A DNA stretch of 64,000 nucleotides, taken from the sequence record MK327929.1. The stretch is one strand, 5' to 3'. The notes below the pieces were generated by a model that was not told the DNA's origin, ran no database searches, and saw only the letters and a program-made list of their open reading frames with translations. The stretch comes from Escherichia phage D5505. Position numbers and translations under genes: made by a program. Positions within the stretch are counted from its first letter, which is position 1. Each line of letters begins with the position of its first letter. Positions 7,070 to 53,012 of this stretch are shown here, piece by piece.

Positions 7070-7570
7070 TTATCTCATTTCAATAAAATCTACGAGTTCA
7101 GCATGCGATTTGCGGAACATTACTTGGTGCCCACCAATGATAACTTCATCTTCAGGAACTTCGTATACAGCGAGATAAAATCCTTTAGAAGATAATTCTT
7201 CCCGCTCTTCTCGTGTGAACCATCTCATCATATCATACTCACTAGCGAAAGCAAAATGATAAAGAGCTATAAACCATCCTGGAATATGATATTCTACTCC
7301 AACATAATCTTTCTTGAACTTAGTATTAATTACTATATTAGCGTTTTTAACTAATAGTTTATCTTCGTGTGGTAAAGGAATTCTTTTATTATTATCGCTA
7401 TGATGCATAAAATTAGGTCTGTCATAACCTACGTGTAATAGCCACTCTTCGCTCCATGGATCTATTATACTCCTGTACGGCGTTATTTGAACACAAAGAT
7501 TTCGACGTATTGTTATAGCATCTTCATAATCAAGAATACTAAACGATGATTCAACACGATAAATTTTCAT
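7070..7570 (-). CDS. hypothetical protein (start reassigned to internal ATG)
   Basis: ORF-track start 7609 lies inside the upstream promoter spacer; ATG at 7568-7570 has GAGGA SD; about 166 aa. Confidence 0.5.
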   Translation of the reverse strand: MKIYRVESSFSILDYEDAITIRRNLCVQITPYRSIIDPWSEEWLLHVGYDRPNFMHHSDNNKRIPLPHEDKLLVKNANIVINTKFKKDYVGVEYHIPGWFIALYHFAFASEYDMMRWFTREEREELSSKGFYLAVYEVPEDEVIIGGHQVMFRKSHAELVDFIEMR

Positions 7571-7597
7571 TTTATTATCCTCAGTAGCTATGGTGTT

Positions 7598-7627
7598 ATA
7601 ATACCACAACTAACCGAGGAAGTAAAC
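7598..7627 (-). promoter_or_regulatory. T4-early-type promoter (GTTTAC..18..TATTAT)
   Basis: minus-strand motif read directly upstream of 7070..7570. Confidence 0.45.
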
Positions 7628-7633
7628 AACTTT

Positions 7634-8317
7634 TTATCGTTTTGTTGGAAGAGATAGAGGATCGCAATCTTCCTCTGATGGAGCATCTTCAAGACCCATA
7701 GCATATCGCAAAGCGTACTTCATCATCAGGATGTCTTTCGCACAGTCATGAATAGAATCATGCGCAACGAATCCATCTAAAGTTCCTTTTGGAAGAGGAC
7801 ACGTGGTCATATCACGAACAAGCAGAAGTGCTTCAATTCTGGTACGAATATCACGCTGATTCCAGAATTTACATGGTTCTAACTTAAATGTGTCAAGTTC
7901 ATTCTCAGAAACACCATTAAGACGTTGAATATCACGAATGAGATCGACTAAAATTGGAAAATCAAACGACATTCCACGGCACCAGCCTTGAGATTTCCAA
8001 GGATCGATATTATGTGCATTGATGTAATCATTAAATTTCGCAATACCGTCGATAGTGCTTACATCTTCATCGGACGGTGCAATATTTTTTCGAGCTTCAG
8101 GAGACTGATTTTTCCACCATTCGATAGTGCTTTTAGTAAAAAGACGATGTCCTTTTTGGCTTTTTAAATCAAATTTGATTTTAATGCCGCGTGAAACTAA
8201 TTCATCAAATGTTTCAACTACTTCTGGGTTAGGGTCAAAAGCAATTACAGCTAAATCAATAACAGCTGCTTTTTCACCACTTCCCATTGTTTCAAAATCT
8301 ATAATAAAATCAAACAT
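7634..8317 (-). CDS. dexA: exonuclease A (DnaQ-like 3'-5' exonuclease)
   Basis: 227-aa ORF, same length as T4 DexA; N-terminal IIDFETMG exonuclease motif. Confidence 0.85.
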   Translation of the reverse strand: MFDFIIDFETMGSGEKAAVIDLAVIAFDPNPEVVETFDELVSRGIKIKFDLKSQKGHRLFTKSTIEWWKNQSPEARKNIAPSDEDVSTIDGIAKFNDYINAHNIDPWKSQGWCRGMSFDFPILVDLIRDIQRLNGVSENELDTFKLEPCKFWNQRDIRTRIEALLLVRDMTTCPLPKGTLDGFVAHDSIHDCAKDILMMKYALRYAMGLEDAPSEEDCDPLSLPTKR

Positions 8318-9050: not shown

Positions 9051-10370
9051 TCACACATAAAATACATCATAGCGACCACGGGTGACACCAACATAAAGAA
9101 GTTGTTGAGCCAATTCAGCATCTGCATAATGAATACAAGGCGTATAAATGAAAGCACGGTCTACAGACATACCTTGAGCTTTATGGAATGTTGATGCAGG
9201 AAGTGCTTTCACTTTACTAAACTGTGATTTAGCATCCCAAAAATCACTCCATGGAGCTTTTCCGCCTTTGTTCCAATTTTTATAAGTTTCTGCCGTTTTA
9301 CCTAAAAATAGGTTAAACTTATATAACTCTTCATCAGATGAAATTATTTTAATCTTTTCACGATAATATTCATCATCGCCGTAAGTTTCTACTGTTAAAT
9401 CCCAATGACGAATTAAGTATTCTCCAGGAACACCACGAGCTTTAACAAAGGTTGATGTATACTCTGCTTCTATAATACGAACTAATTGTCCGTTATTAAA
9501 AATAATTTCTGACACAGGCTTTCCATCAATTTTATATGTTTTAATTAATGGTTCCTGCATTACAATAATTTCACCGACAATAAAATCTTTATCAGTTTCA
9601 AAAATCTTTTTACGAATAATGCTATTTAACTTGTCAACAGATTTATTCGTAAATGCCATTACGCGATTTTCAAACAAATCATCTAGAGATTTGACGATTG
9701 AAAAATAATTTACCATAAAATCGCGTAAAGCGGTATCACCAGTAAATCCACGTACTCCATGCCCGTCAACAACTTTATCATAAATCCACTTACCGTTACG
9801 AACGTCAGTAGCTACATCAATAATAGGAGCATTACTGCGTTTAACTTCAGTGAGTTCACACTGATAAAAATCTTTATGTGTAAAGAATGGACTGATATAA
9901 GCAGTATTTTCTCCTGGATCAACAGGTCTAATTTGCTTATTATCACCTATTCCAATTATAGTACACCAAGGTGGAATAGTTGAAAGCAGAATTTTAAATA
10001 GCTTTCTATCATACATTGACACTTCGTCGCAGATTAATACCCTGCATTTAGCTAAATCTGGTACTTCCTTCTGTTCAAAAAGAACGTTTTCTTCATACGT
10101 AACTGGGTTAATTTTAAGAATACTGTGAATAGTACTCGCTTCTTTCCCCGACAGTTTTGAAAGAATCTTTTTAGCTGCATGAGTAGGAGCTGCTAAAATA
10201 ATACCAGTTTCACCCGTAGATATTAAAGCTTCAATGATGAATTTTGTAAGAGTAGTCTTACCAGTACCAGCAGGTCCATTAATAGTTACATGATGTTTCT
10301 TTTCTTTAATAGCCCTCATAACGATGTTAAAGGCATTTTTCTGGCCTTCTGTCAAATCATCAAATGTCAT
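9051..10370 (-). CDS. dda: Dda DNA helicase (SF1B)
   Basis: 439-aa ORF, same length as T4 Dda; Walker A GPAGTGKT. Confidence 0.9.
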   Translation of the reverse strand: MTFDDLTEGQKNAFNIVMRAIKEKKHHVTINGPAGTGKTTLTKFIIEALISTGETGIILAAPTHAAKKILSKLSGKEASTIHSILKINPVTYEENVLFEQKEVPDLAKCRVLICDEVSMYDRKLFKILLSTIPPWCTIIGIGDNKQIRPVDPGENTAYISPFFTHKDFYQCELTEVKRSNAPIIDVATDVRNGKWIYDKVVDGHGVRGFTGDTALRDFMVNYFSIVKSLDDLFENRVMAFTNKSVDKLNSIIRKKIFETDKDFIVGEIIVMQEPLIKTYKIDGKPVSEIIFNNGQLVRIIEAEYTSTFVKARGVPGEYLIRHWDLTVETYGDDEYYREKIKIISSDEELYKFNLFLGKTAETYKNWNKGGKAPWSDFWDAKSQFSKVKALPASTFHKAQGMSVDRAFIYTPCIHYADAELAQQLLYVGVTRGRYDVFYV

Positions 10371-16216: not shown

Positions 16217-16417
16217 ATGGTACAAAAATTAATGGCACTTGTTAATGCCATCAAAGGTAATAAAAAGCGTATAGCTTTTACTATTTCTGCTATGGTAGGA
16301 ATTTTACTCTGGAACTTTATTTTATCACCTGTTGCAATTGCACATGGTATTAATATTCCAGTAGTTACTCTTGATACATTCGTAGATTTAGCATTCGCTT
16401 TAGTTGGGTTAATTTAA
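16217..16417 (+). CDS. candidate plus-strand small hydrophobic protein (66 aa, two predicted TM segments)
   Basis: ATG preceded by AAGGAGG; sits in the 61-56 intergenic region, not antisense to a CDS except its last codons. Confidence 0.4.
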   Translation: MVQKLMALVNAIKGNKKRIAFTISAMVGILLWNFILSPVAIAHGINIPVVTLDTFVDLAFALVGLI

Positions 16418-17442
16418 ATCTTAGCATATTTAGATAACCGCATTTTAGCCATCAACCCCTGAGCAATATTATTTTTCATATATTCCATAATTTGTTCAGT
16501 GGTTGCACCTTCCTTTCTAATCATATCATTAACATCTTTTGATTTCCAGGGAGATTTATCCCAAAACATAACCCTTTCTCCTGCATCAACTAATTTAGTC
16601 ATTCGCTTAATAGTGTCAGGATGACGAGGTTCATTATCTAAAACCCACACACGTCTATCTTTAAATGGAACAACTTCTAGGTCTAATTGACCACCTGTAA
16701 TAGCTATACCATTTTCAATAAAAAGCGAATCTATAGGTCCTTCTAGAACATATACATCACCATCTTTGACTCGTTCGACTCCATAGATTTTTGTTGCCTC
16801 AGGATAAGCTTTGATGGTGATATATTTTTGAGGAGCATCTTTCTTTAATGCACGTCCTTGAAAAGACTCAGCTTTTCCGTTAGCATTATAAATTGGAATA
16901 ACAAGACGAGGCTCAGGTGTTTCCTTTTTATATGTTCCTGGAGCTATACTATTAACTAATTTAGGCCATTCAGTTGTAAACCAAAGATATTTCCATTTAT
17001 CCTTTGGAATACAACGAGCTTTTACATATTTTATAATTGGATGGTCTTCCGCCAATTTATCTAATCTGATGCATGACGGAAGAGATTTAATTATTTTCTT
17101 CTCAGGTTGTTTAGGAAGTTCTTTAGGTTTTTCTACTGGACGACTTTTACCTTTTTCTTTTCTTATTTCAAAGATATACTCACGATATAAATCAGGTTCA
17201 AACTCCTTTAAATATATTCCGATTGGTGCATGATAGTTACAGTTATAACAATGAATATTTCCTTCATTATTATCACCATAATACCATCCACGGGCTTTAT
17301 TTTGATCGGTTTTTGAATCTCCACAAACGGGACATCTAAACCGTAATTTAAAAGTTGAACTATTATTTACTTGTGCGAATTTAGGTAAATGAGCCAATGC
17401 ACGGTATGCAAACTCATTATCAATCCAAGGTATTGATGACAT
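16414..17442 (-). CDS. 61: DNA primase gp61
   Basis: 342-aa ORF, same length as T4 gp61; N-terminal zinc ribbon CPVCGDS...CYNC. Confidence 0.9.
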   Translation of the reverse strand: MSSIPWIDNEFAYRALAHLPKFAQVNNSSTFKLRFRCPVCGDSKTDQNKARGWYYGDNNEGNIHCYNCNYHAPIGIYLKEFEPDLYREYIFEIRKEKGKSRPVEKPKELPKQPEKKIIKSLPSCIRLDKLAEDHPIIKYVKARCIPKDKWKYLWFTTEWPKLVNSIAPGTYKKETPEPRLVIPIYNANGKAESFQGRALKKDAPQKYITIKAYPEATKIYGVERVKDGDVYVLEGPIDSLFIENGIAITGGQLDLEVVPFKDRRVWVLDNEPRHPDTIKRMTKLVDAGERVMFWDKSPWKSKDVNDMIRKEGATTEQIMEYMKNNIAQGLMAKMRLSKYAKI

Positions 17443-44624: not shown

Positions 44625-45014
44625 TTAATCCAAAATATTATTAGGCATTGGTTGAACACTCACAAGTTCTTTAAAGAACTCAGTAGAGTCAGGCAATTTA
44701 ACCATTTCCGGAGCATGCTTACTGAATTTATGTTTACATTGACGGCATTTATATTCAAGCTCTGGTTTACGCCAGTTAATCAACTGAACTTGTTCAGTAC
44801 CGCATTCAGGGCAATTAGGAACGTTTTTAGAAGCTCTTTCACGTCGTTCAACCATAGCCATAATAGCATCCCATGCTGGAGGTTTAAAATCTAAATCGTC
44901 GCAGCCGTGAATCTTTCCACGCATTTCCATATCATCTTCCTCACCAGCCATAATAATTTTAATTAGACTAGAATTACTTGAAGCTGCAATGTCTTCTAAT
45001 AAACGCTTTTTCAT
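44625..45014 (-). CDS. hypothetical zinc-ribbon protein
   Basis: 129-aa ORF with CPECG...CRQCKH. Confidence 0.5.
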
Positions 45015-45940
45015 TTCAATACCTCAATAGCATTACGTAAACCATTTGCTTTTGCATTAAGAGCTTTTAACAATTTGGTGTGTTCTGCAATTTGGGCTTC
45101 AACTTCAATCAAACGGGCATTGAGATATTCACGTTCTTCACTCAGATTATCAACCTTTTCTACTTTAGGCTCTTTTACAACTGTCTTATATGTATTAGGG
45201 TTCTTCAGTTTAATTAGAATGCGTGAACTGTATAACATTGAACCATTATCTTCGGTTTCGTCATACATTTCCACTACGTCCATAATTTTTAACATCATGC
45301 GGAGTTTATAAGACAACGAACGAATAGTTTTGTTGTGCTTATTAATTTCTTTAGCTGTCATGGTGCCAAGATTACGTGAGTAATAATAAGGAACCTGGAT
45401 ATTAATTAATACTGATGAACCACCTGGCTTGTGTGTTACTTCATCAGCAATAACCCAATCCTTAACATGAACTGTATTTGTACGGTCATCGCCCGCGGTA
45501 AATAGTTTACGAGCATGCTTAAAAAGCATATTCACTTGGTCATTGAATTGACAAGCGAATTTATCAGCAAATTTAGTTTCGGGAATGGTAGATAACCAAT
45601 CAGCCAAATGGGTCTTTTTAACATCGTTAACAATAGTAAATTCAACCAAATCGGTTATAGATGTCGCAGTTTTAATGAATCTCGGCTTCATAAAGTTTTT
45701 AATGTTATCGCGAGCTACAGTAGAAGATAACATACGAGAACGTTTAAACCATTCAAGTAAATTGCCTAACGAATGAGAATAAGCGTTCTGAGTATCTTTA
45801 CAGATATGATTTTCCTGGCCAACATACTGAAGGAAATCACGAAGAATATTATTGATTACTGCTCTGTGTCCTATCTGATAATCACGATGTTTAGTAATAA
45901 GACTGTCAAAATAATCAATATAATGTTTACGAGTTTTCAT
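45011..45940 (-). CDS. hypothetical protein with C-terminal coiled coil (tandem family member)
   Basis: 309-aa ORF; heptad-like C-terminus. Confidence 0.5.
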   Translation of the reverse strand: MKTRKHYIDYFDSLITKHRDYQIGHRAVINNILRDFLQYVGQENHICKDTQNAYSHSLGNLLEWFKRSRMLSSTVARDNIKNFMKPRFIKTATSITDLVEFTIVNDVKKTHLADWLSTIPETKFADKFACQFNDQVNMLFKHARKLFTAGDDRTNTVHVKDWVIADEVTHKPGGSSVLINIQVPYYYSRNLGTMTAKEINKHNKTIRSLSYKLRMMLKIMDVVEMYDETEDNGSMLYSSRILIKLKNPNTYKTVVKEPKVEKVDNLSEEREYLNARLIEVEAQIAEHTKLLKALNAKANGLRNAIEVLK

Positions 45941-45994
45941 GTTCTTCTCACTTGGTTAATGGTTTATACTCCGAGCCATCCTTGGCTTTAAATT

Positions 45995-46996
45995 TTACTT
46001 AATTAACTGTAAAGCTTGTTCAAGACGATCCAGGCGATTAACAGATTCTTCCCAAATCCTTTTAGCCTGCTCATATTCTTTCTGTGCTTTATTAGAAATT
46101 TCTAGAACTTCTTTATAAGCTTTTTCTAATGCAATAACTTCTGGACGAATTTCTACCGATTCAGGTGAATCATCAAGATTATCCATTAGTTCCTCAAGGG
46201 TAGTTTCTTCTTTAGGGGTATTCACAATTTCTTCACATTTTTGTTGATAAATTTCTTTATTAGTAGGTGAGTACGCGCACTTTACTTCACGAAGACTAAC
46301 TACAATTTTATATCCTTCCCAACCGCATATATTCTTAAAAGGATAAGTATGAATATTTTCTACCGTTTCCATACAAAGTAATGCAGTCTCTAACTGACGA
46401 GTTGTATCACTAGCAATTGAGAAAAATTTATTAATGTTCTTTTGATTAGCTTCTGGTGTAAAAAATTCATAATTCACAAAAATAGCTGCTTTATTTTTAT
46501 CAAGTTCATATTCTTTTATGATAATCATATCAGAAGCCAAAGGATGAATTTGACGATAATCGCCATAACATAATTTAGAAGCTGATTTTAGAATTTGCTT
46601 CTTGAAAAGTCTAAAATTACTAATCCAACGACGAGTAAAAATATTCTCAGGGTCTTCTTTATTATTAAGATGATAAGAATTAACATCACCGAACCAACTG
46701 TATCCTACTACATCTTTGGTTCGTTTAATTTCTTTCCCAAAATTACTAAGAATATCTTGATTAACTAAATATGAAAGAAGACGAGACCCTTTAAAGGTTT
46801 CCTTAATATCATCTTTATCTACACGACTAGAAATTTTATGAACTTCATGAATAAATTTGCTGGAAGAAACAATACTTGCATCAGTATTGTTGAGCCACTG
46901 ATTGATAATAGAAAGAACACTATTCTGACTAGACATAGGTTTAACTTTATCATCAATAACGCTATTGAATGATTTGATATATTCGTTACGAGTCAT
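45995..46996 (-). CDS. hypothetical protein with C-terminal coiled coil (start reassigned, about 333 aa)
   Basis: ORF-track start 47026 overlaps promoter -10; ATG 46994-46996 has GAGGAG SD; internal motif aligns with 47054..48073. Confidence 0.5.
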   Translation of the reverse strand: MTRNEYIKSFNSVIDDKVKPMSSQNSVLSIINQWLNNTDASIVSSSKFIHEVHKISSRVDKDDIKETFKGSRLLSYLVNQDILSNFGKEIKRTKDVVGYSWFGDVNSYHLNNKEDPENIFTRRWISNFRLFKKQILKSASKLCYGDYRQIHPLASDMIIIKEYELDKNKAAIFVNYEFFTPEANQKNINKFFSIASDTTRQLETALLCMETVENIHTYPFKNICGWEGYKIVVSLREVKCAYSPTNKEIYQQKCEEIVNTPKEETTLEELMDNLDDSPESVEIRPEVIALEKAYKEVLEISNKAQKEYEQAKRIWEESVNRLDRLEQALQLIK

Positions 46997-47024
46997 ATTA
47001 ATCTCCTCAGTAGAAAGTAAGAAC

Positions 47025-47054
47025 ATTATACCACATCCTTGTGGTAAAGTAAAC
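47025..47054 (-). promoter_or_regulatory. T4-early-type promoter, sequence-identical to 2418-2447
   Basis: 32-bp exact repeat attataccacatccttgtggtaaagtaaacta. Confidence 0.55.
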
Positions 47055-48073
47055 TAGTTCAGCGCATTTAGTGCATTGTTCAATTTAGAACGTTGCTTCG
47101 TGAGATTTTTGACTTTTTCTTGAGCTTTTTCTAGCATCTTTTCAGCTTCTAGCACTTCATTAGTTGCTTTAACGAGTTCATCATCTACTGCCTTGATAGA
47201 CTTCTCAATCGCATCCGCGTGCCATTTTTCAACAGGTTTAAGACTCGGATTTTCAATAGGAAGAAAATTCACTTTATTGAATTTCCATGCATCTTTATTA
47301 CCTGAGCTATACATCCAAAATTTAGGATCGTTTGATGAGCAATTAGATAAATTTAAGTTATCTTGCACTTCCTGCTTTTTCTCTTGCGGGACTTCATCCT
47401 TTCTCAAAAAATCGTATTTAAATGAAACGATCATATCAAGTTCATACGTTGTTGTATGTTCCCAATTTCGCTCAAAATGAGGTAAAATCTTAGACTGAAC
47501 AGCGGCAACAACATCCATATACTTAAATGCTTCTGTCAACTGTGATTTAAGGCATTCACAAATTGAAAGAGAATTTTTTGTATTAGGTTTAAAGCTAATT
47601 CGTGCAGTTCTATTATTTTCTTTTAATGGTCTTACTTCCATCTGAAGAGTATAACCATCAAATTTCAGGTTCTTTAAGTTAATGTCAGAACCTTTTAATC
47701 GACTAGCCGTCGACAAAATTTGCTTTAATTGTTTACGGAATAGAGCAATAAATCTCCATTCAAGACGGTAATGATTTGGATTAAAAAATCCTGTTGATAA
47801 ATCAACCTTACTCTGACCAACGCCTTGAACAAATAGAGGATTTTTATAATCAATAGTTTTACAGAAATCGGTGAGCTGTTCGCGAGCAGTCATTTGCGTA
47901 ATATATCCAGCTTTATCAAAATGTCGCAGCCATTCACTGCTATTCATATACTTAAAGTGAATGGAACTATTAACTCTATCAGGGTCTAAATTATTTTGGC
48001 ACAAAAATGTCATAACATCACGAGTATAACTGGCATTACGAACCATATCTTCAATTTGAGAACGAGTTTTCAT
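47054..48073 (-). CDS. hypothetical protein with C-terminal coiled coil (paralog of 45995..46996)
   Basis: 339-aa ORF; YRLEWRFIALFRKQLKQILSTASRL aligns with FTRRWISNFRLFKKQILKSASKL. Confidence 0.5.
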   Translation of the reverse strand: MKTRSQIEDMVRNASYTRDVMTFLCQNNLDPDRVNSSIHFKYMNSSEWLRHFDKAGYITQMTAREQLTDFCKTIDYKNPLFVQGVGQSKVDLSTGFFNPNHYRLEWRFIALFRKQLKQILSTASRLKGSDINLKNLKFDGYTLQMEVRPLKENNRTARISFKPNTKNSLSICECLKSQLTEAFKYMDVVAAVQSKILPHFERNWEHTTTYELDMIVSFKYDFLRKDEVPQEKKQEVQDNLNLSNCSSNDPKFWMYSSGNKDAWKFNKVNFLPIENPSLKPVEKWHADAIEKSIKAVDDELVKATNEVLEAEKMLEKAQEKVKNLTKQRSKLNNALNALN

Positions 48074-48081
48074 GGTGTTCC

Positions 48082-48984
48082 TTAAAATTTAAGTAAATCA
48101 ACGATTTTAATTAATTTTTCACGCTCAGATTTAGCTTTACTACTCAATCCAGATAGTCTGAAAATTTCATCATCATATTGCTGAATAGAAATATTTAGCT
48201 CTTCAATCTGCTTATTAAAATAAGCAATTTGTTCAGAATGTTTTTCATTACTGCGAACTGGTACAGGTTTTGTAGGTAATTTAGATGAACTGGATTCATC
48301 CGGGCGATAAATTAAAATACAACTTGAACCAATCGGACATTTAGCACCAGATGAATATTCTAATGTTCCAGCTTCTTTTAAAACTTCAAAAGCTAAACAG
48401 AGATGATGCCCCATATTGACATAATCTGTAGAGTGAGCTCTGATGTAATAATCATCTCCACGAGTACTAAATTTAAAGCATTTAAGGTCTTCTGTATTAT
48501 TGGTCTTAAAAATCATTTGTTTATCTAGACCTTTAGCTAATCGAGCGCCTAATGCTAATAATCGTCGTTGATTTTCCCACAAATCCGCAATCATTTGGTC
48601 AAATGATAATTTCGGCATTAGTCGACCATAAAGGTCATATCCTTTATTATAATTGCGAAGGATTTCACTCGCATTAATACGAGACAACGCTCCAATTTTA
48701 TTAAGGGCTTTCATGATGCGATTAGATAAACCCATTCCAGATCCGTTTGTTCGTTGCAAATGTTTATCTAATCCAAACCCAATATCAACTTTAAATTTAT
48801 CTAAAATTTCAGCATGAACATCTCTGTCAATAACATTCAAATCCAAAGTTGGGTTAAATCTATGAAAAAATTTATCTGGCTCTCCACGACGAAGTACAGT
48901 CCATTCATTTAATTTTTTATTAACTAAAGATTTAATTACTGCATTGACATTATTAATTACTACTGACATATTTTTCTCACTCAA
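48082..48984 (-). CDS. hypothetical protein with C-terminal coiled coil
   Basis: 300-aa ORF. Confidence 0.5.
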   Translation of the reverse strand: MSEKNMSVVINNVNAVIKSLVNKKLNEWTVLRRGEPDKFFHRFNPTLDLNVIDRDVHAEILDKFKVDIGFGLDKHLQRTNGSGMGLSNRIMKALNKIGALSRINASEILRNYNKGYDLYGRLMPKLSFDQMIADLWENQRRLLALGARLAKGLDKQMIFKTNNTEDLKCFKFSTRGDDYYIRAHSTDYVNMGHHLCLAFEVLKEAGTLEYSSGAKCPIGSSCILIYRPDESSSSKLPTKPVPVRSNEKHSEQIAYFNKQIEELNISIQQYDDEIFRLSGLSSKAKSEREKLIKIVDLLKF

Positions 48985-49385
48985 TTTTCAATTTTACTAA
49001 ATACACAGAATATGATGGAAAAGACTATATAAGCACCGCATACAGATTGAACTAATACCATTCCAAAGAACCAAACAATATTATCAAACAATGTCTGTTT
49101 TACGTCGAAAGGACGTAAACTTACAGTAATATTATCGCCTTTTTCTATTGATGAATACATCTCTGGTGAAATATATTCACTAAATCTATAACCGTCTTTG
49201 AGTTCATATACGGCAATAAACGATAAACTAGACCCCTTTCCTTGAGTTCCTGTAAGGGTATTAACTACAGTAACATCATAATCTTTATAATGCATATAAT
49301 CATTAATTGCATAATAACCATATGCAACTACTACACATAAACAACATATCAATAAATTCAATCTTTTAATTATCAACTGTTTCAT
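48981..49385 (-). CDS. membrane protein
   Basis: 134-aa ORF with N- and C-terminal hydrophobic segments. Confidence 0.5.
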   Translation of the reverse strand: MKQLIIKRLNLLICCLCVVVAYGYYAINDYMHYKDYDVTVVNTLTGTQGKGSSLSFIAVYELKDGYRFSEYISPEMYSSIEKGDNITVSLRPFDVKQTLFDNIVWFFGMVLVQSVCGAYIVFSIIFCVFSKIEN

Positions 49386-49440
49386 AATAATCTCAATTAA
49401 AAGGGCTTAGAACCATTATACCATCCTTGGTATAAAGCGG

Positions 49441-49968
49441 TTATGCGAGTACCGTCTTTAACCGTTCTTCAAACTTCCGAAGAGTATTTTGGCGTTCAGC
49501 TCTTTGCTTTTTGTAAGTTTCAATACGCTCTGAAATGAGAGTGTATCGTTCATTTACTGATTCTTTCATAAAATCAGGAATTTCACGAGAAGCTTTAATC
49601 TCATCAAATTTATCAATAACAGCTTGCTCTTCAGCAATTAAGTTATCATACATCAAAATATCTTTCTTGATGAACTCAATATCTTCTTGAGTTACACGAG
49701 ATAATTTAGATGCTTTATCCTTTTTGTACTGTTCGTTAGTATCACGAGACCAGTGTAATGTACGATTTTTATTCGTATTCTTGTAAATTTCTACAATACC
49801 AATCTCATCGATAATAACGATCCAATTCCAACGAGATTTGTAAATTTGTCCTCCGTCAACCGTGATTTCACCTCCGATTGAGATGTCATTAAAGAACTTG
49901 CTTTGTGCTTCAGATTTAAATTTACCATCGTTGTAATTTACCAGGTTGAAAATATCTTTAGCGTTCAT
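49441..49968 (-). CDS. hypothetical protein with helical C-terminus
   Basis: 175-aa ORF with GGAGG SD downstream of promoter 49997-50026. Confidence 0.5.
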   Translation of the reverse strand: MNAKDIFNLVNYNDGKFKSEAQSKFFNDISIGGEITVDGGQIYKSRWNWIVIIDEIGIVEIYKNTNKNRTLHWSRDTNEQYKKDKASKLSRVTQEDIEFIKKDILMYDNLIAEEQAVIDKFDEIKASREIPDFMKESVNERYTLISERIETYKKQRAERQNTLRKFEERLKTVLA

Positions 49969-49996: not shown

Positions 49997-50026
49997 ATAG
50001 TACCACAGAGGAACAGTCTTGTAAAC
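49997..50026 (-). promoter_or_regulatory. T4-early-type promoter (GTTTAC..18..TACTAT) with conserved downstream ACAACTATCAACTAC
   Basis: shares a 24-mer with 24773-24796. Confidence 0.5.
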
Positions 50027-50433: not shown

Positions 50434-51420
50434 TTATTTCAGAAGAGTAACCTCAGCGATTTCTTGCCAACCGTTTTTGTCGGTCATAATAAAGTCAGCA
50501 AGATAAAGTGCAGTACGCAGTGAAACATTGCGTAAACGGTTAACATTGACTTTCATCCATGATAATGCTTTATAAGTTTCTTCATCAGAAAGACCGCGCT
50601 TTTGCATCATGTCAGTTGAAAGAATAACATCTTCAACCCTGACCATAATTTCTTCATTAGTGTGAACACCCAAATCCAAATAAACCGAGCGGGACACTAA
50701 TGCTTGTAAATGTGGAGCAAGTTTAGTACCACGGTCTAATTCGCGGTCAATGTCAACGTTTGTGATAAAAACAATCGTTCCTTTAAATTCAAACTCACGC
50801 TCAATGCCTTTTTCTTCTAAGTAAGAAGATGCGGTGCTCCAGCAGACTTTACGGGTCTCTCCAGTGTCCAGAGCAGCTTTCAGAAGATTAAGAATGTCCA
50901 TATCAGAGAAAACATCCACATCATCAATCAAAAGGACAGAATTCTCTTCACGATTATTCCAAAGTTGTTCATAAAGACCGATACCGGAGATTTTACCGTT
51001 AATGCTTTTATATTCAATGTATCCATTATCATTTGCTTTATTCAAAGCTTTATCTAAAGAATACGTTTTACCAATACCCGCCGCACCAGAGATAATTAAT
51101 GAACGAATGTTTCCGTTAATAATACCATTCGTCATCATTCCCATAACATTAAATCTTTTATTAATGCGGGTTTTCATATCTTCATATGATTCTTTAACTT
51201 CTTCAACTTTTACACCATCATATGAAATGTCTGATTTGTAAACCCAAACACCGCGACGCTTACCGTCAATTTCAACAAAAACTTTACCATCTCCTTGTGC
51301 ATCTACCGGAGCATTATCTGGGAACCATTCACCTAAGAGCTCAAAAGTTCCAGAGATTTCTTTACCGAAGTAGATACCCTTATTGATAGTTACAGTTTTC
51401 ATTTTATTCTCCAATCTCAC
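50434..51420 (-). CDS. P-loop ATPase (AAA+-like) of unknown function
   Basis: 328-aa ORF; Walker A GAAGIGKT, Walker B LLIDDVD. Confidence 0.6.
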   Translation of the reverse strand: MRLENKMKTVTINKGIYFGKEISGTFELLGEWFPDNAPVDAQGDGKVFVEIDGKRRGVWVYKSDISYDGVKVEEVKESYEDMKTRINKRFNVMGMMTNGIINGNIRSLIISGAAGIGKTYSLDKALNKANDNGYIEYKSINGKISGIGLYEQLWNNREENSVLLIDDVDVFSDMDILNLLKAALDTGETRKVCWSTASSYLEEKGIEREFEFKGTIVFITNVDIDRELDRGTKLAPHLQALVSRSVYLDLGVHTNEEIMVRVEDVILSTDMMQKRGLSDEETYKALSWMKVNVNRLRNVSLRTALYLADFIMTDKNGWQEIAEVTLLK

Positions 51421-51998: not shown

Positions 51999-53012
51999 TC
52001 ATTTATAATAACTTCGGTGGTTTTCAAGATAAACCCTCTCAAGGAAGTCATCCCAAAAACCCATGTCTACTTTTTGCTGCATACCGTTCTTAGAAGCTTC
52101 AGTAGATGCTGCTTCTACTTGATCGACCACATCTTCCAAAAACTCTTGAACCGTTTTAAATGGATGTTTACCCAACTTCACGTCGAGAATAAATGGAGCA
52201 TCTTGGAGTGGATAAACCAAGTCACCAGTTTTGTAAATTTCCAATAGTTGGAGTCCACCACGGCAAGCATGACTCAGAGCTTTCCAGTCAATACCTTCAT
52301 TGGCTTCGGCCTTACGAGCACGTTCACCGTATTCAGCATCTAATTTGTTCAGTGACTGCTTAAGCTCAATAAGAGAAAGCGTTGTCTGATATTTACGACC
52401 CAACACTGTGTAGAACGTCTGTGGGCCTGTTTTCTCATGATTATGGAACACCCATTCACAGAATTCGTTTTCTGGAAGACGATGCTTAATATCTTCAACT
52501 TTAGTACGACGCTGCTTAATAGAACCATCTTCTTGGTAATCAACCCACTGCTCAGGGATTTGATTAACTACTTTCAATACATCACGTAATGCAGCCAAAC
52601 GAGAACCCTTAACGCCGTATTTAGAAGCTTGCTTACGGACATATCCTAAATAGGATTTCATGTTAGTCGTATAAAAACGAGAACGGTTGTCTTGAATAAA
52701 CTTCCACACATCAGGCAAATCAGATTTAACCACTAGTTCAGGTGGAGTGTGAAGCATATCTAACGCTACAGTTTCACCATCTGCTGCTAATTTAAAGAAA
52801 TATTTAAGACTGTATAGTTCATGGTCAATATCATCTTTAGTGTTTTTAGATGATGTGTTGTTAGTGTTTTTACTCATGTGCTCTTTAACATTTCCGATAA
52901 GAATATCACGAGCAGGAGGAACAAAGATTTCTTTAAAATCTACATCAGATTCTGGGGTAGAAGTTCCATAAAGATGACTACCAAAATAGCTTTTCATTAC
53001 TGTTTTCATCAT
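51999..53012 (-). CDS. nucleotidyltransferase-fold protein (Pol-beta superfamily), function unknown
   Basis: 337-aa ORF; N-terminal GSHLYGTSTPESDVDF fits the minimal nucleotidyltransferase signature GS-x9-13-DxD. Confidence 0.6.
   Translation of the reverse strand: MMKTVMKSYFGSHLYGTSTPESDVDFKEIFVPPARDILIGNVKEHMSKNTNNTSSKNTKDDIDHELYSLKYFFKLAADGETVALDMLHTPPELVVKSDLPDVWKFIQDNRSRFYTTNMKSYLGYVRKQASKYGVKGSRLAALRDVLKVVNQIPEQWVDYQEDGSIKQRRTKVEDIKHRLPENEFCEWVFHNHEKTGPQTFYTVLGRKYQTTLSLIELKQSLNKLDAEYGERARKAEANEGIDWKALSHACRGGLQLLEIYKTGDLVYPLQDAPFILDVKLGKHPFKTVQEFLEDVVDQVEAASTEASKNGMQQKVDMGFWDDFLERVYLENHRSYYK

Follow-up and report, generated by a model that had tools for sequence, protein, structure and literature searches.

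T4 is the best-studied phage, and its genes nrdC.3, nrdC.4 and nrdC.6 are still without a function, with their neighbour nrdC.5 known only for overcoming the host defence protein Dsr1. Here we analyse the corresponding gene array in Escherichia phage D5505, positions 45011–49968 of a 64,000-nucleotide stretch of record MK327929.1 (the window, here always the whole 64-kb stretch). Our favoured reading, held with fair confidence, is that nrdC.3, nrdC.4, nrdC.5 and nrdC.6 are diverged tandem paralogues with a modular plan that act as non-enzymatic blockers of immune sensors and carry an oligomerizing tail. The open reading frames (ORFs) have long been annotated in T4 and a function has been published for nrdC.5; new here are the grouping of the four genes as a family, its modular layout and the recognition of three uncharacterized paralogues as candidates.

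The closest described system is T4 NrdC.5 itself. A T4 clone stripped of accessory genes could not plate on ECOR17, and deletion of the host dsr1 gene restored plating; dsr1 cloned from ECOR17 protected MG1655, and plasmid-borne T4 nrdC.5 alone restored infection (Srikant, Guegler & Laub, eLife 2022; PMC9391042). Dsr1 is a SIR2-TPR NADase countered by T4 NrdC.5 (PMC9391042), and what triggers the TPR sensor in E. coli Dsr1 is reported to be the phage major capsid protein (2026 preprint, PMC12803255). T4 nrdC.5 has also been described as an early gene. The literature searched contained no published mechanism for NrdC.5, no paper naming DUF7235, PF26897 or PF26899 and no paper treating nrdC.3–nrdC.6 as one family. 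The products of nrdC.3, nrdC.4 and nrdC.6 have the architecture of T4 NrdC.5, a DUF7235 protein, as distant paralogues of it, but differ in having no DUF7235 match and in belonging to other Pfam and PHROG families.

Two further systems offer partial likenesses. DSAD1 of SPbeta is a small non-enzymatic phage protein that counters the SIR2 NADase DSR2 and is reported to bind the sensor region in published structures. The pair serves as a working model for NrdC.5 against Dsr1, as an analogy only and without sequence or fold comparison; host, phage family and sirtuin all differ, and DSR2 senses the tail tube whereas E. coli Dsr1 senses the capsid protein. The T4 internal proteins IPI, IPII and IPIII are likewise a T-even paralogue set with a constant module and variable bodies, of which IPI counters GmrSD and IPIII an ECOR17 system (background; see also PMC9391042). 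In that set the invariant part is a capsid-targeting sequence at the N-terminus, and the proteins are injected, whereas the constant module of nrdC.3–nrdC.6 is a predicted C-terminal coiled coil and expression would follow infection.

The source DNA is a Tequatrovirus (T4-like) genome, AT-rich with a GC fraction of ~0.34, and its genes here lie on the minus strand. The 4,958-bp array stretch had matches in 743 phage records, chiefly Escherichia and Shigella T4-like phages, with at least 80% of it covered by a single match in 465 of the 743 and a top identity of 99.5%. Genes were mapped by comparison with the annotated T4 genome and by protein alignments, and lengths are given in amino acids (aa):

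45011..45940, minus strand: nrdC.3, 309 aa, 61% identity to T4 NrdC.3; family member, highly polymorphic allele
45995..46996, minus strand: nrdC.4, 333 aa, 91% identity to T4; family member
47054..48073, minus strand: nrdC.5, 339 aa, 91% identity to T4; DUF7235/PF23882, family member
48082..48969, minus strand: nrdC.6, 295 aa, 97% identity to T4 over the first 259 residues; probable family member
48981..49385, minus strand: nrdC.7, 134 aa, 91% identity to T4; predicted membrane protein, a non-member inside the array
49441..49968, minus strand: nrdC.8, 175 aa, 99% identity to T4; assigned to a separate family

An earlier reading made from the letters alone (the sequence-only reading) had described five consecutive ORFs here, nrdC.3–nrdC.6 and nrdC.8, as one family expanded by tandem duplication. 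All five are present on the minus strand at those positions and their lengths are borne out, including the approximate 333 aa given for nrdC.4, but they are not strictly consecutive, as nrdC.7, absent from that reading, intervenes between nrdC.6 and nrdC.8. The duplicated family itself holds for nrdC.3, nrdC.4, nrdC.5 and nrdC.6 and not for nrdC.8, which has no detectable core or tail similarity to them.

A Pfam scan matched nrdC.5 (47054–48073) to the DUF7235 profile over residues 1–339 (E 1.2e-124, 416 bits against a cut-off of 30), and in the same scan nrdC.3, nrdC.4, nrdC.6 and nrdC.8 had no match to DUF7235 and none of nrdC.3–nrdC.6 matched an enzyme family. nrdC.3 and nrdC.4 are assigned to the same PHROG, nrdC.6 is assigned to PF26899 in a precomputed annotation, and Pfam and PHROGs gave only families of unknown function for the array proteins.

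For profile building, homologues were collected together with the syntenic loci of seven further phages (Gaprivervirus VR25, Dhakavirus WG01, Dhakavirus ABTNLsp5, Mosigvirus AV117, Jiaodavirus FRZ284, Kanagawavirus IME523 and Lazarusvirus KARL-1); three further loci, from a Pseudotevenvirus, a Slopekvirus and a Krischvirus, were fetched and no members were found in them. Pairwise BLASTP among the five proteins gave one convincing match, between nrdC.3 and nrdC.4 (25.7% over 226 residues). The alignment of nrdC.4 with nrdC.5 was colinear and non-significant (E 0.67), and nrdC.6 matched no other array protein. Pairwise BLASTP is too insensitive for rejecting homology of these remaining pairs. 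When 2.3 Gb of phage DNA was searched by tblastn with nrdC.4, phages without that gene yielded their nrdC.3-type gene at E 8e-8.

Profile comparison with hhalign was more informative. nrdC.3 and nrdC.4 were matched at 98.9% (E 3.5e-17), and the nrdC.3/4 profile was matched to nrdC.5 at 90.9% (E 1.1e-6) over 234 colinear columns, or at 73.9% (E 2.8e-5) with the core only. An earlier comparison of shallow nrdC.5 and nrdC.4 alignments had given a probability of 4.8%, and the score rose only once orthologues from Gaprivervirus, Dhakavirus and Mosigvirus were added. The nrdC.3/4 profile also matched a 324-aa Jiaodavirus protein at 94%, and nrdC.6 matched a 335-aa Kanagawavirus protein at 87% through the tail and at 18.6% through the motif helix. 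Reversed-profile controls gave E values of at least 0.08.

Iteration of full-length hidden Markov model (HMM) searches quickly joined everything, in part via the tails. Because coiled coils can give false links, the iteration was repeated in a 462-ORF locus database after each protein had been freed of its tail by cutting off the 60 C-terminal residues. The nrdC.3/4 core profile then drew in the Jiaodavirus and Kanagawavirus intermediates (E 8e-6 and 8e-5), after which nrdC.5 was recruited colinearly at E ~1e-6 and nrdC.6 at E 5e-6, later 1e-13 to 1e-38. For nrdC.3–nrdC.6 the similarity goes beyond compositional bias, with links that survive tail removal and reversed-profile controls that fail; for nrdC.8 no such similarity was found in profile alignments of either core or tail.

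The 13-sequence alignment contained the blocks M(K)TR..YI, FKxSRLLS...A...L.NF and a motif helix followed by GD(D)R, and towards the C-terminus a 'P-V' ahead of the tail and R..L..A(I/M)..LK at its end. The blocks common to the paralogues are mainly hydrophobic, with the exception of FKxSR and GD(D)R. The sequence-only reading had noticed an internal motif shared by two of the proteins, and this proved sound: 11 of 21 residues are identical, compared with a maximum of 9 in 200 shuffles, the two sites are homologous in the colinear profile alignments, and the motif falls on a helix pair with a predicted local distance difference test score (pLDDT) of ~95 in the nrdC.4 model. The two sites are as follows:

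46571..46642, minus strand: core helix pair of nrdC.4 with the motif RRWISNFRLFKKQILKSASKL (model, alignment, shuffles)
47696..47758, minus strand: homologous motif helix of nrdC.5, WRFIALFRKQLKQILSTASRL (profile alignment, shuffles)

The MKTR start reported for two of the genes is likewise present, in nrdC.3 and nrdC.5, with an MTR start in nrdC.4. The nrdC-adjacent genomic position is constant across genera. At the level of sequence, nrdC.3 and nrdC.4 are clear homologues and the paralogy of nrdC.5 is shown by profile comparison; nrdC.6 is a probable member of the family.

AlphaFold2 models of nrdC.4 and nrdC.6 were each built from the protein's own family-specific alignment only. The nrdC.4 model (pLDDT 82, core above 90) has a helical bundle at residues 13–94, a small beta region at 98–120, the motif helix pair at 129–152, a hairpin at 168–184, a helix at 195–218, a second hairpin at 222–245 and a helix at 256–269, followed by a disordered linker at 270–295 and one helix at 295–342. 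The nrdC.6 model (pLDDT 78) has a bundle at 3–106, a helix pair at 123–150, a hairpin at 165–178, a helix at 186–199, a hairpin at 204–221, a disordered segment at 227–241 and helices at 242–271 and 276–294. The order of secondary-structure elements is identical in the two models, the plan running from an N-terminal helical bundle through the helix pair, a beta hairpin, a long helix and a further beta hairpin to the linker and a long C-terminal helix. Both models matched the same six BFVD proteins from other Straboviridae genera near-full-length, at E 1e-7 to 1.5e-3.

The C-terminal heptad tail was located in each of the four proteins:

45014..45148, minus strand: tail of nrdC.3, residues ~265–309, conserved heptad helix
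45998..46144, minus strand: tail of nrdC.4, residues 295–343 in the 343-aa numbering, a single helix (H295–342) in the model
47057..47233, minus strand: tail of nrdC.5, residues ~281–339, from heptad score, alignment and periodicity
48085..48246, minus strand: tail of nrdC.6, residues 242–295, helices H242–271 and H276–294 in the model

The nrdC.4 tail is one heptad shorter than the other family tails. The heptad-rich ends described by the sequence-only reading were found again, the best 28-residue heptad window falling within the last ~60 residues in all five proteins. A tail HMM scored 42–69 bits on nrdC.3, nrdC.4, nrdC.5 and nrdC.6, gave no match on nrdC.8 at E ≤10 and, in the ~700 other ORFs searched from those loci and from the 64-kb window, had a sole match, at E 8.3. 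Mean hydrophobicity of the aligned nrdC.3–nrdC.6 tails had a sharp peak at a period of 3.5 residues, with a power of 45 compared with 27 at 3.6 and at most 14 at the other tested periods. A long helix free of proline and glycine, with hydrophobic residues recurring at this spacing, is what is expected of a coiled coil. Identities between cross-genus orthologues were distributed over the modules as follows:

nrdC.4: tail 61–65%, core 40–46%, N-domain 46–59%
nrdC.6: tail 61–69%, core 32–50%, N-domain 26–28%

By these residue comparisons the tail is the best-conserved module of the family, beyond compositional bias, and the bundle and core are its variable parts. The earlier description of a family diversified at the N-terminus is therefore too restrictive: the core diverges equally, and what stays constant is the coiled coil at the C-terminus.

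In the T4 reference (NC_000866), one nucleotide of the window's nrdC.6 is missing (GAAGAGCT-GATATT compared with GAAGAGCTAAATATT). The resulting frameshift (fetched locus ~10067–10130, corresponding to window ~48190) replaces the last ~36 tail residues, and the DNA past it still codes for the tail in another frame. This is either a laboratory-strain lesion or an error in the reference sequence.

All family members found were in Straboviridae phages, and copy number spans 1 to 4 where members occur, varying even inside Tequatrovirus:

This window (Tequatrovirus): four members, none further in the 64 kb
Tequatrovirus EC121 and ECO07P1: three members, with one nrdC.3-like gene and no nrdC.4
Gaprivervirus and Dhakavirus loci: three members, of nrdC.4, nrdC.5 and nrdC.6 types, with no nrdC.3
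Mosigvirus AV117: three members, of nrdC.6, nrdC.5 and nrdC.3 types
Jiaodavirus and Kanagawavirus: one member each

No member was detected in the fetched Pseudotevenvirus, Slopekvirus and Krischvirus loci, which were anchored on nrdC.11. The comparison of copy number across T-even genomes that the sequence-only reading had proposed thus gives a range of 1 to 4 members, among the Straboviridae genera that have any. Within Tequatrovirus, nrdC.3 falls into three allele classes with at least 92%, ~75% and ~60% identity to the window copy. The core of the window nrdC.3 has 84% identity to the Mosigvirus AV117 copy compared with 50% to that of T4, and this allele pattern suggests inter-genus exchange.

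A 343-aa ORF of the Acinetobacter phage KARL-1 (fetched locus 16396–17427) lies directly upstream of a thioredoxin gene, starts with MTTR and ends in a heptad helix with '...ILEESIKILSK'. Its hhalign scores against the family profiles were below significance. It is probably a family member below the sensitivity of the profiles, in line with the BFVD matches to Acinetobacter phage proteins.

Two rearranged relatives were also observed. P0056, a 299-aa metagenomic/ENA protein, is a natural nrdC.5/nrdC.3 fusion, in which nrdC.3, from the motif helix on, follows the C-terminal two thirds of the nrdC.5 core, with the junction at 'FNKVN|MLFKHARKLF'; the fusion corresponds to a deletion of nrdC.4 and parts of its neighbours at a short paralogue similarity. 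P0121, the 378-aa NrdC.6 of Shigella phage Sf25, has an internal tandem duplication of 83 residues (181–263).

The proposed family plan would consist of a short conserved N-terminus, M(K)TR..YI, followed by a variable helical bundle, an alpha/beta core opening with the helix pair 'F..F.....IL..A.(K/R)L..GD', a disordered and often acidic linker and a ~50-residue heptad helix that closes with 'R..L..A(I/M)..LK'. Members would block host immune sensors stoichiometrically, without enzymatic activity. Which sensor is bound may be set by the variable bundle and core, and the constant coiled-coil tail may oligomerize the protein, giving avidity against oligomeric sensors. Early synthesis would allow the sensor to be occupied before a late trigger appears, such as the major capsid protein in the case of E. 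coli Dsr1. Stoichiometric blocking appears the most likely mode because there is no enzyme match, the common blocks are mainly hydrophobic and the genes stand behind promoter-like sites.

The host-interaction or anti-defence specificity expected by the sequence-only reading is established in print for T4 nrdC.5, against Dsr1. For nrdC.3, nrdC.4 and nrdC.6 an anti-defence role is suggested by paralogy, early-promoter context and variability in copy number and allele. With the four genes as one family, these three therefore become testable anti-defence candidates. The combination of a conserved tail with variable heads also suggests domain swaps, in which the head would be expected to determine the target and the tail oligomerization. 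A bolder extension, possible rather than likely, is that the family is a modular 'anti-sensor' toolkit, with a coiled-coil docking or oligomerization module and swappable heads that each plug a different fold-sensing receptor. Such receptors would include, for example, Dsr1/Avs7-type TPR sensors recognizing capsid protein. nrdC.3, nrdC.4 and nrdC.6, together with the relatives in Acinetobacter, Klebsiella, Enterobacter, Pectobacterium and Yersinia phages, would then be a reservoir of inhibitors with separate specificities.

Several points weigh against the reading of nrdC.3–nrdC.6 as paralogous sensor blockers. The direct hhalign comparison of nrdC.3/4 with nrdC.6 was non-significant (E ~0.08–0.1), and the probable link of nrdC.6 to the family comes from the intermediates, the common tail and the predicted structures. 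Iterated profiles may drift in a database as small as 462 ORFs, and the fold likeness of nrdC.4 and nrdC.6 is one of element order and structural neighbours, without direct superposition. The anti-defence demonstration covers T4 NrdC.5 only, to which the window allele is 91% identical. Both direct sensor blocking and tail oligomerization are steps that we infer. The T4 reference nrdC.6 is without most of its tail, and the tail would therefore be dispensable there, at least in the laboratory.

Among the alternatives, the one that survives best, although we consider it unlikely, is that only nrdC.5 is anti-defence and that in nrdC.3, nrdC.4 and nrdC.6 the common scaffold serves early functions of another kind, for example taking over the host or regulating proteins of the phage or the host. 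It is consistent with published function being confined to nrdC.5 in the literature searched. However, they are dispensable and variable in presence and allele, as is typical of accessory counter-defence genes, and the core of the window nrdC.3 is nearer to that of Mosigvirus AV117 (84%) than to that of T4 (50%), which argues for exchange and diversification and against a housekeeping role that is fixed.

An improbable alternative is that the products of nrdC.3, nrdC.4, nrdC.5 and nrdC.6 do not inhibit separate targets independently but share one function as a hetero-oligomeric coiled-coil complex assembled by their tails. The tail is indeed the module most conserved across the paralogues, with a common end motif, and the genes are adjacent and co-oriented. 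A complex of this kind is difficult to reconcile with a copy number of 1 to 4, with one detectable member in Jiaodavirus and Kanagawavirus, with the lack of nrdC.4 in EC121 and of nrdC.3 in the Gaprivervirus and Dhakavirus loci, and with the loss of most of the tail in T4 reference nrdC.6. In addition, plasmid nrdC.5 alone restores infection, although the extent of the mutant's deletion is not readable from the text of the paper.

That all five ORFs, nrdC.8 included, form one duplicated family, as the sequence-only reading had it, is very improbable. nrdC.8 also ends in a helical, heptad-like tail and is conserved as their neighbour in Tequatrovirus, Gaprivervirus, Dhakavirus and Mosigvirus. 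However, it had no profile similarity to nrdC.3–nrdC.6 in core or tail, never joined the HMM iteration with tails in or out, was passed over by the tail HMM at E ≤10 and had a heptad score not above shuffles, 13 of 200 reaching it. A phmmer search with nrdC.8 in 1.84 billion representatives returned 37 relatives that form a distinct family, mostly of 150–240 aa with one 533-aa fusion. Most of these align only in the N-terminal ~125 residues, with an 'NDGKFKSE(A/K)Q' motif, and a few also align into the helical C-terminus, which is otherwise variable among relatives. Membership of nrdC.8 was rejected, no link having emerged by its phmmer relatives, the expanded profile or the tail HMM. It is assigned to a separate family with a predicted N-terminal domain absent from nrdC.3–nrdC.6 and a helical tail of its own.

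Scarcely credible, finally, is a convergent likeness of nrdC.5, nrdC.6 and nrdC.3/.4 produced by coiled-coil composition and chance without common ancestry: the weak pairwise BLASTP (E 0.67 for nrdC.4 with nrdC.5, none for nrdC.6) and the non-significant direct hhalign of nrdC.3/4 with nrdC.6 would fit it, but the links survive tail removal, colinear alignments exceed 200 columns where reversed controls fail, independent models agree in element order and structural neighbours, and the nrdC-adjacent position is constant across genera.

T4 nrdC.8 has been reported as down-regulated in DRT1-expressing cells, where it was called a nucleotide reductase (PMC13275509). No reductase features were found in the nrdC.8 protein by Pfam scan or among its phmmer relatives. 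The other neighbour, nrdC.7, had no comparable C-terminal heptad signal by a simple heptad score, and among the loci examined it occurred only in those of Tequatrovirus.

In many GenBank records the label 'thioredoxin' stands on most nrdC.1–nrdC.11 genes, apparently derived from the gene-name prefix. Only nrdC itself in this block is a thioredoxin/glutaredoxin. For the five array proteins a thioredoxin identity was rejected, as no Pfam thioredoxin family was matched at E ≤1, and the predicted folds of nrdC.4 and nrdC.6 are unrelated to thioredoxin. With no thioredoxin match in these proteins the label is a name-derived annotation error, corrected here for nrdC.3–nrdC.6; the labelled genes share with nrdC only the gene-name prefix and the genomic neighbourhood.

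nrdC.3–nrdC.6 are located in the nrdC–nrdC.11 accessory region, behind sigma-70-type promoter-like sites that are consensus matches only. One such site is the following:

47025..47053, minus strand: early-promoter-like site before nrdC.4, TTTACT-17-TATAAT with an upstream TG; consensus match only

The start of nrdC.4 at ATG 46996 has a GAGGAG ribosome-binding site and gives 333 aa; the mechanical ORF extends to ATG 47026 (343 aa), which lies inside the TATAAT -10 box. For nrdC.6 the most likely start is ATG 48969, giving 295 aa, the alternative being the upstream TTG 48984 (300 aa). A further three promoter-like sites are almost identical to one another (TTTACA-17-TACTAT, upstream TG) and lie on the minus strand at 50025–49997, 51467–51439 and 51947–51919, before nrdC.8, nrdC.10 and a small ORF downstream of nrdC.11.

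The ORF in the nrdC.2 position (44625–45014, minus strand) encodes 129 aa with zinc-ribbon-like CxxC pairs and weak Pfam Zn_ribbon matches; it has 104 aa in T4, and the 129-aa form also occurs in EC121. nrdC.10 (50434–51420, minus strand) contains a P-loop NTPase domain that gives weak Pfam matches of AAA and STAND-like type, and nrdC.11 (51999–53012, minus strand) matches the RlaP nucleotidyltransferase family. Conservation of nrdC.10 and nrdC.11 is far wider than that of the nrdC.3–nrdC.8 array.

A bifunctional nicotinamide mononucleotide (NMN) adenylyltransferase/Nudix gene lies a few kb from nrdC.11 in the loci of Lw1 (7108–8166) and phiKp_12 (7099–8160). These are the Pseudotevenvirus and Slopekvirus loci, respectively, both without detectable NrdC.3–.6 members, and the gene may represent an alternative, NAD+-restoring answer to NADase defences. 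In the Tequatrovirus phage ECO07P1, a modA-like NAD-protein ADP-ribosyltransferase gene is located between nrdC.11 and nrdC.10 (fetched locus 2001–2486).

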